64,000 bases of DNA, from IMG/VR virus record IMGVR_UViG_3300031993_000007. One strand, 5' to 3'. Made by a program: the position numbers and the translations under genes. Position 1 is the first letter of the stretch. The number at the start of each line of letters is the position of its first letter. Positions 4,950-12,563 of this stretch are shown piece by piece. The notes below the pieces were generated by a model. That model saw only the letters and a program-made list of their open reading frames with translations, had not been told where the DNA came from and searched no databases. The stretch is from a virus (lineage: Duplodnaviria; Caudoviricetes).

Positions 4950-5791
4950 TACCCTTCCTCCGCCGCATTATGGAGTTCTTTATACTTAATCAGTTCTTCC
5001 TTCAAGATAGCGAAAAGCAATCCAGCACTCGAACTAACTTGTTTTTCTTCGTCTGTGGTTAATTTCCCGTCATCCTTAAAGATGAAACCTTCAATCAACC
5101 CAATCAGACGATCATCTCGATTTCCATAGTCTTCAAGGCATTCTTTCCAGACAGGCCTTGCCTTCTCTAGATCCGCAAGATTGAACATTGGGAGCATAGA
5201 GAAGAATCCAATATCTGTAAGAACAGCAAAGAGCTTAGCCAACGGACAATGCAATTCAACACCTTGTCTTAGCCAGTAGCCGATAATGCCAATGGCTGCG
5301 GACAAGGTGCTTTTTGCATTCCAAACTTCCGGATTGTTGTCTTCCTCTACTATTTCTTCCTCTCCGACTATACTGTCAGATCTGGAACTTTCTAGAGACA
5401 GACGTTTGCTAGCATTGACGCACAATCCTGAAGGCCCTTCATACAAAGCTCCAATCAGGAATGCGTCTGCGCCATTAGAGAAGCAATCTAACCAGTCGGC
5501 ATACGGATCGCCATCTTCGTCTTGCATTATGCGTACTAAGGAACTCTCAACAAGCTCTGTAATGGTTTGGAGCCAATCCATTCCCACCAAAGGTCTTGGT
5601 GTTTCAGGAACAACTCCTTTAACAAGCATCAGATCTTTACGAATCGGTAGTTGATACTTCTCGTATGGAGTCTCTCCGTCTACAAATGGAACAATGTGGA
5701 TATCTTCCCTTTCGCAGAGCAGCAGAGCTGGGCTTCCAGTGGATATTTCATATCCCATTGAAAACCATGCAATATCATTTTGTTCTTCCAT
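4949..5791 (-). CDS. Hypothetical acidic protein (Ubl operon)
   Basis: ORF 4949-5833; GGAG RBS precedes ATG at 5791 (MEEQND); overlaps the JAB stop. Confidence 0.7.
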   Translation of the reverse strand: MEEQNDIAWFSMGYEISTGSPALLLCEREDIHIVPFVDGETPYEKYQLPIRKDLMLVKGVVPETPRPLVGMDWLQTITELVESSLVRIMQDEDGDPYADWLDCFSNGADAFLIGALYEGPSGLCVNASKRLSLESSRSDSIVGEEEIVEEDNNPEVWNAKSTLSAAIGIIGYWLRQGVELHCPLAKLFAVLTDIGFFSMLPMFNLADLEKARPVWKECLEDYGNRDDRLIGLIEGFIFKDDGKLTTDEEKQVSSSAGLLFAILKEELIKYKELHNAAEEG

Positions 5792-6566
5792 TGGCTCCTC
5801 CGCTGTAAGTGATCCACTTCTGGGTTTCGCCAATTTCGCTCATCTCTTCTGGAGTATATCCATATTTCACAAATTTCTTTTCAAGCTCTTCTGGGGTCAT
5901 GTCAGGTTCAGTGCTAAGAATTTCTGCCTTCAAGGCTTCATATTCTTCAAGAACACGAATCTTTCTAGGTACCAAAGGCCTGAACCCACGATACGGGTGG
6001 GGATCCACCAACCCATGATTGCCGTGAAGATCCACGCCATGATGACGGTGAAGATCCAAAGGATAATCTTTTTCAAAGTCAGGATTGTCTACGAGACTGA
6101 TTGTTCCATCAGTAACGACTACGTTGCATTCCAGAGTCGTATATTCACCGACTGCTTCCATGCGGTTCATGATGCACATAGGCACACGGAAGCCCTTCAG
6201 ATAGATGAAAGAGATCTGAAAGAATCGGTTAATGTAATCAAAGTCTGTCTGTGAGAACTGTCCGAACGATCCGGGATGACGATGAACCACAGTATTAAAG
6301 CATCGTTCTCCCCACTTATTTTCATACATATCATCCGGCACTTCTAGCATACGAATACTTCCGGGGCTAACACGCTGCGGCGGAATTTCAAAGACATCAG
6401 GGTCGATAGCAGCTTCCCAACGGATCGGATCGATGTCGGCAGACAAGTACATACCATATTCATCGCCTTTTGCTACTTCTCCCATAAGCTCTAGACGAGC
6501 CAAGACCTTAGCAGGGATTCTTACTGTCCCTCTGCTGCGAAAGTTGGCGTTAACGCTTATTTCCAT
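5775..6566 (-). CDS. JAB/JAMM (MPN+) metallopeptidase, putative Ubl-processing/deconjugating enzyme
   Basis: Exact JAMM signature: E (GDEYGMYL) ... H-R-H-x7-S-x2-D (HRHPGSFGQFSQTD). Confidence 0.88.
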   Translation of the reverse strand: MEISVNANFRSRGTVRIPAKVLARLELMGEVAKGDEYGMYLSADIDPIRWEAAIDPDVFEIPPQRVSPGSIRMLEVPDDMYENKWGERCFNTVVHRHPGSFGQFSQTDFDYINRFFQISFIYLKGFRVPMCIMNRMEAVGEYTTLECNVVVTDGTISLVDNPDFEKDYPLDLHRHHGVDLHGNHGLVDPHPYRGFRPLVPRKIRVLEEYEALKAEILSTEPDMTPEELEKKFVKYGYTPEEMSEIGETQKWITYSGGANGRTK

Positions 6567-6583
6567 ATTTTCTCTACCTCTAT

Positions 6584-6612
6584 AAAAAAGACGGCTACCT
6601 TACGGTAGCCGC
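6584..6612 (-). terminator. Intrinsic terminator between the Ubl and JAB genes
   Basis: cggctacc-ttac-ggtagccg 8-bp stem followed by U6 on the minus strand. Confidence 0.75.
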
Positions 6613-6626
6613 TGATGATGATTTGG

Positions 6627-7139
6627 TCAGTTCTTTGCACCACTGATGTTCGGGCGAACCACGATGGTATCACCGTCCTTCACAGAAGCCGGATTGATCG
6701 AGGAGCCATCGGGGCCTTCAATCACCGTCTTGTCGAAGCTTTGTTCAGCAGCAAATTCCTTGATGATGTCACTCAACTGGGCAGCTGACGTAAATACAAC
6801 TTCCTTAGAGTTGACAACCTCGCCACGCTTGTTGCGAAATTGCACAGTGGCTTTCTTGCCAGCGGCGGCGGCTTTCTTTTCTTCAGCGGCTTCAGCAGAG
6901 ATCCTGGTCGTAGAAGCGACCTTAACTTCCTTCTTAGCTGCCGGAGCTTCAGCTCCTTCGAGAGCCACACCACGAGCAGAGAGCTTGTCTTCACGGGTAC
7001 AAGTCAAATACTTCTTGAGAGTGCGGCTCTTTGTTTTAGCCGTACGGATGTCGCTGATTCCACAGCGCTTCATAACTTCGCTCAAAGTGGAGCTTTTCTT
7101 GTTCCACTCGTCCACGAACTTTTGGTTTTCGGGCGTCAT
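6627..7139 (-). CDS. Ubiquitin-like (beta-grasp, ThiS/MoaD-type) protein with N-terminal extension
   Basis: C-terminus VKDGDTIVVRPNISGAKN matches the MoaD/ThiS pattern LKDGD.V...P.VSGG; lies between the E1/E2 and JAB genes. Confidence 0.75.
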   Translation of the reverse strand: MTPENQKFVDEWNKKSSTLSEVMKRCGISDIRTAKTKSRTLKKYLTCTREDKLSARGVALEGAEAPAAKKEVKVASTTRISAEAAEEKKAAAAGKKATVQFRNKRGEVVNSKEVVFTSAAQLSDIIKEFAAEQSFDKTVIEGPDGSSINPASVKDGDTIVVRPNISGAKN

Positions 7140-7153
7140 GATGATCTACCTCT

Positions 7154-8146
7154 TTATTTAAAGAAACCTTGACAGACCTTCTCAAGGTAGGAAAGGGATT
7201 CCGTATTTTCGTAAATCCCCATTTGAACAAGCAGACTGGTCTCTATCTGCCACATGCCGGATTCAACTTCCGACTTCATGAGTATCTGATCGTCTGGCTT
7301 CATTTGATTATTCTTCTGGTCTGGCATCAGAATAGTCGTGAATTTTCCACCTTCATTATCAGAATAACCCAATTGGTAATATAAAACCGAAACACTCGGG
7401 AACGGGACATCGTTCTTTTTCATGACATCAAATGCTATTTGACGGAATTTATCAAGGACTTGATTAATTCCGAAGTAGACTTGAGCCATTGAAAAGAATC
7501 TGTTTCCTTCCAGTTTTTGGCATAGCATGTACCTAGCTACATCCACGTTAGGCATCCCCTGCAACTTTCTGTAGGTTTCAGGAGCGTACGACGTCCATAT
7601 AGCTTTGGTAATTCTTTCCATAGAACTGTTCCATTCATGGTTCTTCTCAAGATTTTCCTCAAGAATCTGTCGATAAGCCCATACTGCGTAGGGCCAGAAG
7701 GTACAGAACAGATGGTTACAGTTTCTAGCTTTCCTGTGTACTTCGGGATGGCGCAACAAGAGCTGGAAGAATTCGTATCCAACATCAGCGATGAATTCCG
7801 GCACCAGACAGTTACGTCGCCACTCTGTAACGAAATCATTGTCGGATTTACACCATCCTGCATTCATGATACTGGTTCCGCCAAAGTTCCAAGTCAAATG
7901 CGAACCCATTCCGATGATCCAATTGAATTTTTCATTTATCAGAGAGTCTACAACCTCTTCTTCATTTCCGGGGCTGAGATACTCTTGAATTTCTTCCATG
8001 CGCTCTTCGTTTATTCGAGAGATAACGGGTCTGGCTCCATAGAGAACCTTCTTCATCTCTCGAATGCTTTCAAAAGTAACCATAAAGTTTCTTTCAATTT
8101 CTCGGCTAGGAACATTTTGAGCTGGATAGTAGGGCAAATTTACCAT
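7154..8146 (-). CDS. Hypothetical protein between E1 and Ubl
   Basis: 330-aa ORF overlapping the E1 stop; no family recognised. Confidence 0.75.
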   Translation of the reverse strand: MVNLPYYPAQNVPSREIERNFMVTFESIREMKKVLYGARPVISRINEERMEEIQEYLSPGNEEEVVDSLINEKFNWIIGMGSHLTWNFGGTSIMNAGWCKSDNDFVTEWRRNCLVPEFIADVGYEFFQLLLRHPEVHRKARNCNHLFCTFWPYAVWAYRQILEENLEKNHEWNSSMERITKAIWTSYAPETYRKLQGMPNVDVARYMLCQKLEGNRFFSMAQVYFGINQVLDKFRQIAFDVMKKNDVPFPSVSVLYYQLGYSDNEGGKFTTILMPDQKNNQMKPDDQILMKSEVESGMWQIETSLLVQMGIYENTESLSYLEKVCQGFFK

Positions 8147-8865
8147 GTTGCTTCTCCATCTTTAAAGATGTCGTTCAAGCTGAAAAAGTACTTGATGTTC
8201 TTCTCCATAGCTCGTCCGATCGTTGCGAACCATGCGTATGGAATGGCGTAAATCAGCCTGTAAGCATACCACACAAGCATCGTAGGCGGAGCCATAAAAC
8301 TCGGTGTTACGCTATAGGTTCTTTCGGCCACAGTTCCAGTTAGCATCACGTCTTCCTTGCCATAGTCCGGATTGAATTCGATACAGCAAGCATCGCCACC
8401 ATCGTAGGTAAGCTTGATATCAATTTCGGGGAATATAGCTTTAGGATCTGAAGTGTCTCGGGCATCCACAACTACGATACCATTTCTGTAAGCAAAAGTT
8501 GCCCACAGCTCTTGGTTATCACGGAGTTCGGGATATCCAAAGGCTTCAGCCATACACTCTAGGAAGTCTTCCGTAGTATAGACACGCTTCTTGATACCTG
8601 CTAAGATTTCCTTAGAAATGGTAGCCTTATCACGGCCTACGTAACACAACGGCAAGGGAATTCTGTTGAAGTTCGACAGTTCCATCTTGTCGTCATCAAT
8701 AGCTACCAATACTCTGAAATCGTTCATTTTTGCAAAGCCGTAAAGGAAGTTTCCTCCAATACCGCCAGCACCAATAACAATAAGATTTCTGCCGAATGTC
8801 GGAGGGCCTTTAAATTCCTCTCTTAATTCCTCTTTCTTTACATCTTCCGAGCTCATTATAACCAT
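8140..8865 (-). CDS. E1-like ThiF/MoeB adenylyltransferase
   Basis: VIGAGGIG Rossmann loop, IDDDKMELSNFNR (D.D.VE.SNL.R), VVVDARD. The ATG at 8856 (TAATG-coupled to E2) may be the true start. Confidence 0.92.
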   Translation of the reverse strand: MVIMSSEDVKKEELREEFKGPPTFGRNLIVIGAGGIGGNFLYGFAKMNDFRVLVAIDDDKMELSNFNRIPLPLCYVGRDKATISKEILAGIKKRVYTTEDFLECMAEAFGYPELRDNQELWATFAYRNGIVVVDARDTSDPKAIFPEIDIKLTYDGGDACCIEFNPDYGKEDVMLTGTVAERTYSVTPSFMAPPTMLVWYAYRLIYAIPYAWFATIGRAMEKNIKYFFSLNDIFKDGEATW

Positions 8866-9584
8866 TCCTCCACGGTTGAATGTCTTGCCATAATTGCTGT
8901 GTAATCATTGTGGACACCCTTGATGGTATTTTCAATAGTCTTGCAATCGGCGATAATGGATCTTTTTGTAGCCAGATCTACGATTGTTGGTTTGAAGTAT
9001 GACGAGTACAGTGCTTCGTTCTTTAGCATGTTTGCTAAAGATCTAACACTAAGCTCGGTCATATGTTCATGACCAGAAAATCCGCCCATACAGATGGCTC
9101 CACCTGATCCTACATTCGGATGATGAGCCTTAACGTAGCTGCTTCCGGATTTCTTAGCAAAGGCTGAGCAACCAATGGGGAATGTTTCGTTATCGTTACC
9201 AAACAGCTTGAAGACAAACAGTCCGATGGCTGGCTCGTAGTTTACACTATGATTTTCATCGTTCTTGCCCCAAGACCATTCCTTGTCTTTGGTGGCTAGA
9301 TTCATCTTCAAGTACTTCTTCGAGTGTTCGTAATACTGAAGGTTACAAGGCTCAATAGGTTCCTTTAGATATACTTCAAGAGCCGGATATCCTTCGTAAG
9401 TCGCAATTTTTACGGATTCGATCAGATCACTGTCCTTTGCCATCCTGTTTCCAATCTTGGCAATGTCTTCAGCAATCTTAAATCCACTAGTAGCAGATTT
9501 CGGCGAGCTAAAGAAGTTTATTATTCCAGACGAGGATTTCAGTTCAAGAAATCCTCGTTCATCAACTTTTCCAATTCCGTACAT
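8856..9584 (-). CDS. E2-like (UBC-fold) conjugating enzyme
   Basis: HHPNVGSGGAICMG matches the UBC HPN(I/V)xxxGxIC motif with catalytic Cys; directly upstream of E1. Confidence 0.78.
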   Translation of the reverse strand: MYGIGKVDERGFLELKSSSGIINFFSSPKSATSGFKIAEDIAKIGNRMAKDSDLIESVKIATYEGYPALEVYLKEPIEPCNLQYYEHSKKYLKMNLATKDKEWSWGKNDENHSVNYEPAIGLFVFKLFGNDNETFPIGCSAFAKKSGSSYVKAHHPNVGSGGAICMGGFSGHEHMTELSVRSLANMLKNEALYSSYFKPTIVDLATKRSIIADCKTIENTIKGVHNDYTAIMARHSTVEEWL

Positions 9585-10826: not shown

Positions 10827-12563
10827 ATGGCTTCTATTGTAGAAAAGAAATTTGAATGGTTTGAACAGCATTTAAGATCTAATCTTAAAGAGTATACTTT
10901 GGCATCGCCTTTATACCAAGGAATTCCTAATGGCGAAGATGATATGTTCTTGGTATTCTATCTGAAGATTCTTCTTGACAAACTGGATACCATGAAAGCT
11001 AACTCTATGCCTGTCGTACCAGACTCTGATCGTGCTGAACCTAGACTTGGCTATAGGACAGCGGTTCCGGTTCCAAAGGGAGGCTTATCCTCCATAAAGG
11101 TCGGCGTAGTCCCTGATCTTAACCTAGAAGAAATTATTGAAAGCACTCTCACTAAAGCCATACAAGATTATCTAGGATCCGTTGCAAATTCTGGAAATCT
11201 AACTAGAGAACTAAACCAAAATACAAATTTGGAAAACATTACAAGAACAGAATTAAAAGCTCTGGATATCCCGATGATAAAGTCCAATTCCTCTGTAAAT
11301 AAATTATTTCATATTAAGGACTACCTTAAACGTGGTCATATGAAATTTATAACTGAGAAGATCAGAAGTAATATTAATCGTCTTCACAATTATTGTATAA
11401 ATAATAGCCTTAAAAGGCTGTTTCCCGGCGAACAGGACGACTCTGATGTGGTATATGTAAATCCTCCCGATTGGATCTTTCCAAGGCTAGGTATCATACC
11501 CCTTGGCGTTTATCCTGATCTTCCAGATGATATGCCGGAACTTTTACAAATGTTTAGAGAAGGAAATGCCGCTCAGTATACTATAAAAGAATTTGCTATA
11601 GAACCTGGGCGGAGATACCTAGAAATTATTAGGGAACTTAAGGACAAATTTTACAATATCTTTAGTGATGAATCCCACATCAGGAATGATAAAGTAACTG
11701 AAGCTATTGAAATTATCAATACTCTTGCAGATCAAGAATCTATACTCGGCAAGGTATACAAGCACTCAATGCTATATGGCTCTCCTTCTAATAATCCTTT
11801 TACTGGATTTAATGGCGATGAAACAACCAACTATGGAGGGAGGCTGTACAGGTTCCAAGAAGAAATTAAAAGGTACTATTTAGGCGGCAAGTACCCCGAT
11901 GATACGGAGTACGAATCTATTTATCATTTGCTATTCGAAAAGACCTTTAATCTATTTGATGGAACGCTAAGAAGCGTAAGCAACAGATTTATTGACAATT
12001 TGATTTACGACGCTTCTGGAGAAATCGTCAATATCCGTGAAATTGTGGATGGAGAAGGAAATGTTATCCATGATGAACGAGATGATCGATTCACAGAGTA
12101 CCAAGCAGTAAAACGAACTGTCAATAGTTTGCAGCCCTTTATCGTCGATGTATCTGAAACGGTAGCAGGTACAAAGCCTGACTATAACGGACGCTACAGT
12201 GAGGATCTAAATGTCTTTTTCAGCTGCAACAATGAATGGTATAATTCATATGCGAGCCTGCAAGGATATAACAGCATACTCTCTAAAGCAGACGTTACTT
12301 CTGCGAATTTAAAGGCTTATAGAGAATTGATAGAGAATTTCTTCAATTTGACAAAACAGTGCCTAGATAAGACTCTAAAGGATTTCTTAGAACCTGTCGA
12401 TTGGTTTACTAGCTATCCTGAGTATCTAGATATAACTGTCGATACAAAGCTTATTGAAGAAAGACAAGAATCTATACTTGGCAATTTCTATGGTGTTTAT
12501 CGCATAAAAGAGTACAAGGGAACTATAATTTGTTATTTACTACCAGAATATCCAGTAAGATAA
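10827..12563 (+). CDS. Hypothetical protein, probably late/structural
   Basis: 578-aa ORF behind a late-promoter motif. Confidence 0.75.
   Translation: MASIVEKKFEWFEQHLRSNLKEYTLASPLYQGIPNGEDDMFLVFYLKILLDKLDTMKANSMPVVPDSDRAEPRLGYRTAVPVPKGGLSSIKVGVVPDLNLEEIIESTLTKAIQDYLGSVANSGNLTRELNQNTNLENITRTELKALDIPMIKSNSSVNKLFHIKDYLKRGHMKFITEKIRSNINRLHNYCINNSLKRLFPGEQDDSDVVYVNPPDWIFPRLGIIPLGVYPDLPDDMPELLQMFREGNAAQYTIKEFAIEPGRRYLEIIRELKDKFYNIFSDESHIRNDKVTEAIEIINTLADQESILGKVYKHSMLYGSPSNNPFTGFNGDETTNYGGRLYRFQEEIKRYYLGGKYPDDTEYESIYHLLFEKTFNLFDGTLRSVSNRFIDNLIYDASGEIVNIREIVDGEGNVIHDERDDRFTEYQAVKRTVNSLQPFIVDVSETVAGTKPDYNGRYSEDLNVFFSCNNEWYNSYASLQGYNSILSKADVTSANLKAYRELIENFFNLTKQCLDKTLKDFLEPVDWFTSYPEYLDITVDTKLIEERQESILGNFYGVYRIKEYKGTIICYLLPEYPVR

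Follow-up and report, generated by a model that had tools for sequence, protein, structure and literature searches.

Does a ubiquitin-like protein (Ubl) encoded by a bacteriophage serve as a protein tag of the virus's own and, if so, at which residue does the mature tag end? The question is raised by a gene found at positions 6627..7139, on the minus strand, of a stretch of 64,000 nucleotides (the window, hereafter), from IMG/VR virus record IMGVR_UViG_3300031993_000007 (Duplodnaviria; Caudoviricetes). The parent record measures 259,448 bp and carries direct terminal repeats, the stretch is present in bovine gut metagenome runs, and a neighbouring protein of 956 aa (amino acids) has its only relatives in AR9-like jumbo phages of Bacillus and in jumbo phages of Staphylococcus, at 25-30% identity: the owner of the gene is a large uncultured phage from the cattle gut. 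A search of RNA runs for the same stretch returned none that holds it, which counts neither for nor against expression. On balance, we favour the reading in which the protein is the modifier of a phage-owned tagging module, composed of a basic head, a linker and a MoaD/SAMP-like beta-grasp domain, whose functional end is Ser-Gly-Ala168, Lys169 and Asn170 being disposable.

The open reading frame extends from an ATG at 7139-7137 to a TGA at 6629-6627, and a GAGG ribosome-binding site is located at 7149-7152, 9 nt before the start codon. The predicted product has 170 residues, and its translation ends ...RPNISGAKN*; coordinates and the ...PNISG-AKN ending are those reported in the initial annotation, which had been made by a model from the letters alone. 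Besides the reading frame and the ribosome-binding site, the gene is supported by its homologs and by substitution rates. In the comparison of the window gene with two relatives, synonymous sites are saturated and the nonsynonymous rate (dN) is well below the synonymous one (dS): the gene is under purifying selection. When calculated separately for the three parts, dN is 0.12-0.18 for the head, 0.19-0.34 for the beta-grasp and 0.26-0.42 for the linker, so that the head, having the lowest value, is the most constrained of them.

Homologs were searched at several levels. A word-indexed search identified 12 of them, at 69-92% identity and all metagenomic, and a profile run exhaustively against 1.84 billion representatives identified a single genuine Ubl cluster. 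Seven other profile matches, to proteins of 1148-1920 aa, were aligned solely over the linker region and were read as low-complexity similarity. No match was found by tblastn of the Ubl and of the adjoining E1-like adenylating enzyme against 50,697 deposited phage genomes, by megablast of the region, or by comparison of the Ubl with Pfam, PADLOC, PHROGs and NCBIfam. As far as these sequence comparisons reach, the family is narrow. Searching IMG/VR for further loci by using the Ubl alignment, or an E1 alignment limited to close homologs, returned nothing; distant syntenic loci were recovered by using E1 and the neighbouring JAB-type peptidase (JAB) as anchors, with alignments which included distant E1 or JAB sequences. 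These loci, each containing an E2-like gene, E1, a gene of no known family, Ubl and JAB, derive from uncultured phage and metagenome contigs and fall into 8 sequence lineages; three of their source records are 235-268 kb long. The distant Ubls are only 21-27% identical to the window protein and keep its three-part build, and the occurrence of three-part homologs in eight syntenic lineages is far beyond chance. Judged in this way, conservation of the module extends to at least 8 sequence lineages, all of uncultured phages. A few single positions also persist at this distance: Lys137, within the beta-grasp (window ~6729-6731), is near-invariant, and Asn13 and Arg49, within the head, are invariant. 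All three are candidate contact or chain-building residues.

The fold of the protein was analyzed on an AlphaFold2 model of the full protein, built on 13 aligned homologs. The beta-grasp domain corresponds to residues 94-168 (6636..6860, minus strand) and ends with Ser166-Gly167-Ala168; strands are predicted at 95-102, 108-116, 138-141 and 157-163, with residues 119-132 forming a helix, and block means of the predicted local distance difference test (pLDDT) range between 73 and 83. When the domain was submitted to Foldseek, SUMO-2/3, ISG15 and Caldiarchaeum ubiquitin were retrieved (best E 3.6e-4, probability 1.0). Nearly all matches reported by VIA-align are likewise beta-grasp domains, the best one having a Z of 7.6 (root mean square deviation, rmsd, 2.8 over 68 aligned residues); among them is 8tyz_B, the Ubl chain from a complex of bacterial E1, E2 and Ubl (Z 6.5, rmsd 3.3, 71 aligned). 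In the ESM Atlas, searched with the full model, the beta-grasp matches are weak, with template modelling (TM) scores of 0.46 or less by query. The grasp fold assigns the domain to the ubiquitin-like beta-grasp superfamily, and the initial annotation had rightly recognised a ubiquitin-fold protein, which furthermore adjoins E2-like, E1-like and JAMM-motif genes.

At the sequence level, the closest relatives are the sulfur carriers and modifiers of the MoaD/SAMP type. A beta-grasp profile obtained from ten homologs matched, in the PDB, MoaD of P. furiosus (1vjk) with an E of 0.0016 and PF1061/SAMP2 (1rws, 5lda) with E values of 0.023-0.03. The last match position of the profile, Ala168, coincides with the terminal Gly of MoaD/SAMP2, Gly167-Ala168 being placed opposite their Gly-Gly. 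The gathering threshold of Pfam ThiS/MoaD (PF02597) is not reached, as the window Ubl gives no hit and one of the ten family members matches ThiS with an E of 0.0074. Because the family profile reaches MoaD and the ThiS threshold is missed, the domain is best described as a distant relative of MoaD, not as a curated member of its family.

The position at which the mature protein ends was evaluated from the conservation of the C-terminus. Ser166-Gly167-Ala168 is invariant in 13 of 13 close sequences and is followed by a tail of 1-10 residues, free in sequence; the DNA alignment breaks down directly past the Ala codon, and the Gly and Ala codons vary synonymously. Both protein and DNA conservation therefore stop at the same point, which marks Lys169-Asn170 (6630..6635, minus strand) as a candidate pro-peptide. 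Since the residues past the conserved motif are constrained neither in length nor in sequence, they carry the signature of a pro-peptide, and Lys169-Asn170 are likely to be the tail of a pro-form, in agreement with the initial annotation, which had proposed a pro-form Ubl. In two homologs, P0008 and P0012 (L004:3587-4114), the tails are 9-10 residues long (SYEVVVVRPS and YEITVVRPS); they resemble a partial copy of the last strand (IVVRPNIS), and are perhaps the remnant of a small duplication.

In order to compare the eight lineages, their ends were aligned gap-free from the invariant Gly-Asp which opens the last strand. The end reads SGA in the window clade (tail of 1-10 residues), in lineage L005 (tail V) and in L015 (tail AC), AGA in L013 (tail AL), FGA in L026 (no tail), GGA in L028 (tail SV), FNA in the L009 clade (four distinct sequences without a tail, L021 with the tail AV) and YAG in L010 (tail FAAL). 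The position of Ala168 is occupied by Ala in seven lineages out of eight and by Gly in the remaining one, whereas at that of Gly167 six lineages have Gly, one has Asn and one has Ala. Conservation stops past the Ala168 position in all eight lineages, where tails range between 0 and 10 residues across homologs; two lineages terminate precisely at that Ala (...FNA* and ...FGA*), L021 being the one FNA-lineage member with a two-residue tail. The small C-terminal residue of conjugatable Ubls (Gly, rarely Ala), be it free or masked by a tail, is thus present throughout, at a constant spacing from the last strand.

Because conservation ends at Ala168, and because the terminal Gly of MoaD/SAMP2 is aligned with it, Ala168 is probably the mature end and the activated residue: a cut SGA|KN appears more likely than SG|AKN, and Gly-Ala probably stands in for the usual Gly-Gly. 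The initial annotation had placed the cut at SG|AKN and had named, beforehand, lack of conservation of Gly167 as a finding able to refute it. The outcome is divided, as Gly is retained at this position in six lineages and lost in two; with conservation running through Ala168, and Asn or Ala replacing Gly167 in distant homologs, that cut site is not sustained.

A cut between Gly167 and Ala168 has nonetheless a precedent. In Type II Bil systems, the reactive residue of the Ubl BilA is conserved, while the residues past it, nine at most, are not, and experiments have shown that the JAB BilC removes them (Chambers et al., bioRxiv 10.1101/2023.09.26.559546); in E. aridi, BilC cuts BilA at Gly97|Ala98, and Ala98 blocks ATP binding in the E1 (bioRxiv 10.1101/2023.09.26.559546). 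If the phage protein behaved in the same way, Gly167 would be the reactive residue, the JAB would free Ala-Lys-Asn, and Ala168 would be conserved merely as the residue past the cut. We regard this as rather doubtful, though it stays alive because of the E. aridi example and of the lineage ending ...GGA+SV, which would yield a canonical Gly-Gly end; the prevalence of Gly at this position also speaks for it. Conservation reaches one residue beyond the Gly in all phage lineages, however, while in BilA it ends at the Gly. Two lineages would have to activate Asn or Ala, those ending ...FNA* and ...FGA* would retain a one-residue pro-peptide which never varies, and the alignment with MoaD/SAMP2 places the Gly second-last. 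Moreover, a fixed residue past the cut is not expected for peptidases which cleave lysine side-chain bonds.

The part of the protein which precedes the beta-grasp had been described as a basic, helix-turn-helix (HTH)-looking domain of ~50 aa, followed by an Ala/Lys/Glu linker. The linker corresponds to residues 51-93 (6861..6989, minus strand), with a short helix at 82-93; as anticipated, it is rich in Ala, Lys and Glu, and residues 48-81, as well as 84-87, have a pLDDT below 50 in the AlphaFold2 model, disorder being predicted for 48-81. Besides showing the highest dN, it varies in length and composition among homologs. The head, residues 1-50 (6990..7139, minus strand), is predicted as a basic three-helix domain, HTH or winged-helix-like, on the basis of the model, of its isoelectric point (pI), of dN and of weak fold matches. 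Its helices are found at 3-12, 19-26 and 31-48, with block-mean pLDDT of 75-84 over residues 1-40; when residues 1-60 were modelled alone, as the initial annotation had suggested doing for the head, three helices were again obtained, with a mean pLDDT of 73. The pI of the head is 9.9, with 14 Lys and Arg in 58 aa. Heads are basic in all eight lineages (pI 9.2-10.1), and the beta-grasp domains are acidic in most of them, a partition that would favour nucleic-acid binding by the head.

The basic and helical character of the domain is supported; its assignment to the HTH or winged-helix type relies on low scores. No Foldseek match reached an E of 0.001 or better (best E 1.7), and the DNA-binding domains of Fur/Nur, Lrp/AsnC and LexA were at the top of the results. 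VIA-align gave a best Z of 5.2 (rmsd 2.2, 50 aligned), nearly all matches being winged-helix or HTH domains, including the protein-binding winged helices of RPA32 (RPA32C) and Stn1. In the ESM Atlas, TM values of 0.57-0.65 over ~50 residues were obtained to LexA_DNA_bind, HTH_7 and MarR clusters, and a viral cluster of 181 aa was also matched. Against Pfam, the head produced scattered weak matches from single members, among which HTH_23 (0.043) and HTH_24 (0.13) are the sole HTH families, the others being unrelated. WD40 repeats, suggested by a comparison of the head profile with the PDB, were discarded as an artefact, their score being the sum of very short matches to the word ...K(L/E)WN. 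By eye, a SAP/HeH reading could not be separated from an HTH one. As all these scores lie within the range expected by chance for short helical domains, the head is termed HTH-like, and it may, as the initial annotation proposed, bind DNA or oligomerise.

The Ubl gene lies within a conserved gene block. Along the minus strand the order is a 389-aa protein of no known family, the E2-like protein, E1, a 330-aa protein, Ubl, a terminator, the JAMM peptidase and further genes of no known family; the E2-E1-unknown-Ubl-JAB synteny holds in every locus. The E2-like protein (8856..9584, minus strand, 242 aa) was recognised by its HPN...Cys165 motif, by Atlas neighbours and by weak family matches. The HHPNV and G-x-I-C-M-G-G motifs are invariant, a weak match to UBE2S extends across the HPN-Cys segment, and Prok-E2_D is matched by two members out of three, at E values of 0.019-0.11. 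In the ESM Atlas, a feature score of 0.96, with 218 shared features, links it to viral clusters with Prok-E2_D in 19-39% of their members; comparison of the E2 profile with the PDB returned chance matches only.

The E1-like adenylating enzyme (8140..8865, minus strand) is a minimal one, of 241 aa. It matches Pfam ThiF with an E of 1.9e-7, above the cut-off, and the ThiF adenylation motifs are present; the best PDB matches are the SUMO E1 UBA2 and the NEDD8 E1 UBA3, at an E of about 1e-3, and in PADLOC only generic or Cap2-type E1-E2 models are matched, weakly (8.8e-6 or weaker). No Cys is invariant among distant E1 homologs: the Asp-Ala-Cys-Cys of the window clade is replaced elsewhere by Asn-Ile-Phe-Val, Asn-Ile-Met-Cys or Ser-Ser-Val-Ser. 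A canonical E1 thioester therefore seems unlikely, and the thioester relay may begin at the E2-like protein or make use of the 330-aa neighbour. In one sub-clade (L002:5702-6664 and L003:30-983), the E1 carries an acidic, low-complexity N-terminal extension of ~80 aa, which is missing from the window E1.

The gene for the 330-aa protein (7154..8146, minus strand) is always located between E1 and Ubl. An intervening gene of 219-336 aa is found in every syntenic locus (e.g. L002, L004, L005, L007, L009, L010, L013 and L015), where it usually overlaps the end of E1. No family hit was obtained for it in the family-library scans; it could be an E3 or adaptor, a partner subunit of E1, or a substrate.

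On the other side of the Ubl gene, a JAMM/JAB-type peptidase of 263 aa (5775..6566, minus strand) is the candidate for both trimming and de-tagging, as judged from its motif and its ESM Atlas neighbours. Glu36, His95-x-His97, Ser105 and Asp108 are invariant in six sequences, down to 28% identity (28-31% for the distant homologs), and the neighbour gene thus displays the E...HxHx7SxxD signature of JAMM/MPN+ enzymes on an MPN fold. In the Atlas, JAB/MPN and Prok-JAB families are among its neighbours, both by features (0.93-0.94) and by structure; one viral cluster, 33% of whose members have Prok-JAB, shares 183 features with it, at a score of 0.93. No hit was found in Pfam, PADLOC or NCBIfam, and the PDB, searched with both the single sequence and a profile, returned chance matches only. 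A complex predicted from JAB, Ubl(88-170) and Zn had a score of 0.00, which, being obtained without controls, argues neither for nor against binding. Past the catalytic domain, the C-terminal regions of these peptidases are long and highly variable, being His-rich, Lys-rich or made of Tyr-Gly repeats, for total lengths of 221-411 aa; examples are the window protein (5775-6566, residues ~160-263), L013:2480-3715, L015:2501-3631 and L010:7243-8322.

Ubl and JAB are separated by a hairpin (6581..6612, minus strand) resembling an intrinsic terminator, with a 9-bp stem including 6 GC pairs and a T-run, placed between the Ubl stop codon and the JAB ribosome-binding site; the remaining genes of the block, unlike this junction, abut or overlap. 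A hairpin followed by a U-run was found at the same site in seven of seven other loci folded (L002:8173-8242, L004:4112-4189, L005:4268-4336, L009:7237-7310, L010:7179-7247, L013:2425-2484 and L015:2432-2505); their sequences are unrelated, and z values range between -2.4 and -5.2. With a terminator after its stop codon, the Ubl closes a transcription unit, and the JAB would therefore be expressed by read-through or separately. The arrangement suggests that more Ubl than JAB is produced, or that their production is timed differently.

Outside the module, a divergently transcribed gene adjoins the block (window 10827-12563, plus strand; L009:2591-3475 and L010:1588-2460, minus strand), and a gene of ~166 aa beyond it is likewise conserved in distant lineages. 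Since both are kept at such distances, the conserved neighbourhood may exceed the Ubl module.

Taking these elements together, the favoured reading would operate as follows. The tail would be removed after Ala168, most likely by the adjoining JAMM peptidase; the carboxylate of Ala168 would be adenylated by the minimal E1; the Ubl would be transferred to Cys165 of the E2-like protein and then attached to amino groups of targets, from which the same JAMM peptidase could remove it again. Each tagged protein would bear a tethered basic head, probably binding nucleic acid or a partner protein. Trimming by the JAB, conjugation and DNA binding by the head are steps that we infer from motifs, predicted folds and gene order.

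That the JAB takes care of the trimming may be doubted. In an alternative scheme, which we hold to be quite unlikely, the peptidase would act only as a de-tagging isopeptidase, and the tail would be cut by a protease of the host or by another phage protease, or be tolerated by the E1. The JAB is also present in lineages with a tail-less Ubl, from which it follows that trimming is not its sole job, and the terminator splitting the two genes in all lineages uncouples their expression. On the other hand, peptidases of the BilC, Cap3 and HvJAMM1 types do both jobs. To our knowledge, an internal residue cannot be adenylated by an E1, which weighs against tolerance of the tail. Less probable still is the absence of any covalent tag, the protein being either a sulfur carrier of the MoaD/ThiS type, with the E1 as its activating enzyme, or a DNA-binding regulator docking non-covalently on the neighbouring enzymes, with a tail of no role: MoaD and the dual-function SAMP2 are indeed the best sequence-level relatives, the E1 is minimal, ThiF-like and without a conserved Cys, and the head resembles the DNA-binding domain of a transcription factor, but in all lineages the Ubl is accompanied by an E2-like protein with the invariant HPN...Cys motif and by a JAMM peptidase whose active site is intact. 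Among the operon proteins scanned, sulfur-acceptor families such as rhodanese, MoaE and ThiG were not found, and two small C-terminal residues kept at a constant spacing from the last strand, with free variation past them, are what activated Ubls show.

Several observations also weigh against the tagging module ending at Ala168, in the form given above. The Gly-Ala of E. aridi BilA, being cut between the two residues, makes a cut after Gly167 possible, and the ...GGA+SV end fits GG|ASV equally well. Without a Cys invariant across distant homologs, the canonical thioester step of the E1 may be missing. JAB, E2 and Ubl all score below every curated family threshold, and the fold matches of the head are weak, as indicated by the VIA-align and Foldseek scores reported above.

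Among known systems, the module works most like Type II Bil. Both have a single beta-grasp Ubl beside separate E1, E2 and JAB genes, and a conserved C-terminal residue, in the phage protein a presumably reactive one, with an unconserved tail (up to about nine residues in BilA), the E. aridi end being also Gly-Ala; extra N-terminal domains occur on some BilA proteins. In the BilD E1, an inactive adenylation domain is combined with an active one, and a mobile Cys domain and a zinc site of four Cys are present besides (bioRxiv 10.1101/2023.09.26.559546), while the phage E1 is a single adenylation domain of 241 aa and has neither the second adenylation domain, nor the Cys domain, nor the zinc site. 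Bil is found in bacterial defence islands, the phage module in a lytic-type jumbo phage; conservation of the phage Ubl runs through the Ala, instead of stopping at the Gly; and the phage gene order adds a conserved gene of no known family and a terminator. As PADLOC gives no match for Ubl, E2 and JAB, and the E1 has none of these BilD features, the module falls outside Type II Bil in spite of the likeness.

The closest sequence relatives of the beta-grasp are found in MoaD/ThiS and in the SAMP1/SAMP2 system (with UbaA and HvJAMM1), which share with the phage a C-terminal pattern DGD...P.(I/V)SG(G/A), a minimal ThiF-like E1 and a JAMM partner; according to PMC4443979, HvJAMM1 is among the JAMM peptidases doing both trimming and de-tagging. 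SAMP systems have no E2, and SAMPs, which lack an N-terminal head, terminate in Gly-Gly. That Ala can be the naturally conserved reactive end in an E1/E2 pathway of bacteria has a precedent in type II CBASS (Cap2, Cap3): a C-terminal Gly or Ala is conserved in its CD-NTases, a G432A mutant still conjugates, and the JAB Cap3 cuts exactly past the last residue of the substrate. CBASS, however, conjugates an enzyme, not a beta-grasp Ubl, has E2 and E1 fused, and serves bacterial defence. PRTRC-type cassettes and the operons described by Iyer, Burroughs and Aravind in 2006 are, like the phage module, mobile E1, E2, JAB and Ubl sets, and the phage E2 and JAB resemble Prok-E2_D and Prok-JAB; all matches of the phage proteins to these families are below curated thresholds (PRTRC ThiF TIGR03736, E 0.12). 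PRTRC cassettes also comprise a ParB-related protein. In the 2006 paper, phages are reported only with a tail-assembly Ubl-JAB pair, and no full E1/E2 set (PMC1779556). Finally, SUMO-2/3, the best structural match, is also made as a pro-form with a short tail, and its last strand and tail can be aligned by eye without gaps. No sequence homology is detectable, and SUMO is a eukaryotic protein with a Gly-Gly end, matured by a cysteine protease (SENP).

Single-beta-grasp bacterial Ubls have already been described with varied N-terminal domains (N/G-rich tails, coiled coils, DUF1508), so that a head on a tag is, in general terms, not a new idea. In a literature search of limited extent, no paper was found on a complete phage-encoded E1/E2/Ubl/JAB kit; in a 2021 survey of 224 jumbo phages, ubiquitin is mentioned merely in passing.

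The ubiquitin-like conjugation characterised in bacteria belongs to anti-phage defence, in the Bil and type II CBASS systems, or to stress-response operons (Bub). A conserved kit owned by viruses would mean that phages, too, employ protein tagging. The substitution of Gly-Ala for Gly-Gly is relevant to the way in which a C-terminus is recognised by E1 enzymes and JAMM peptidases, and the corrected cut site has a practical side, as constructs ended at Gly167 might be inactive. Since the head is more conserved than the ubiquitin fold, it is suggested to be the payload of the modification; being tethered and possibly binding nucleic acid, it would fasten tagged proteins, of the host or of the phage, to DNA or RNA. 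As a tentative possibility, jumbo phages may own a Ubl system of a lineage of their own, with an Ala-ended tag and a nucleic-acid-binding head, for offensive use on the side of the virus. If true, its uses could be the loading of proteins onto the genome, the sequestration of host factors or the disarming of defences, and it would represent an offensive turn, by the virus, of machinery known in prokaryotes so far as anti-phage defence.

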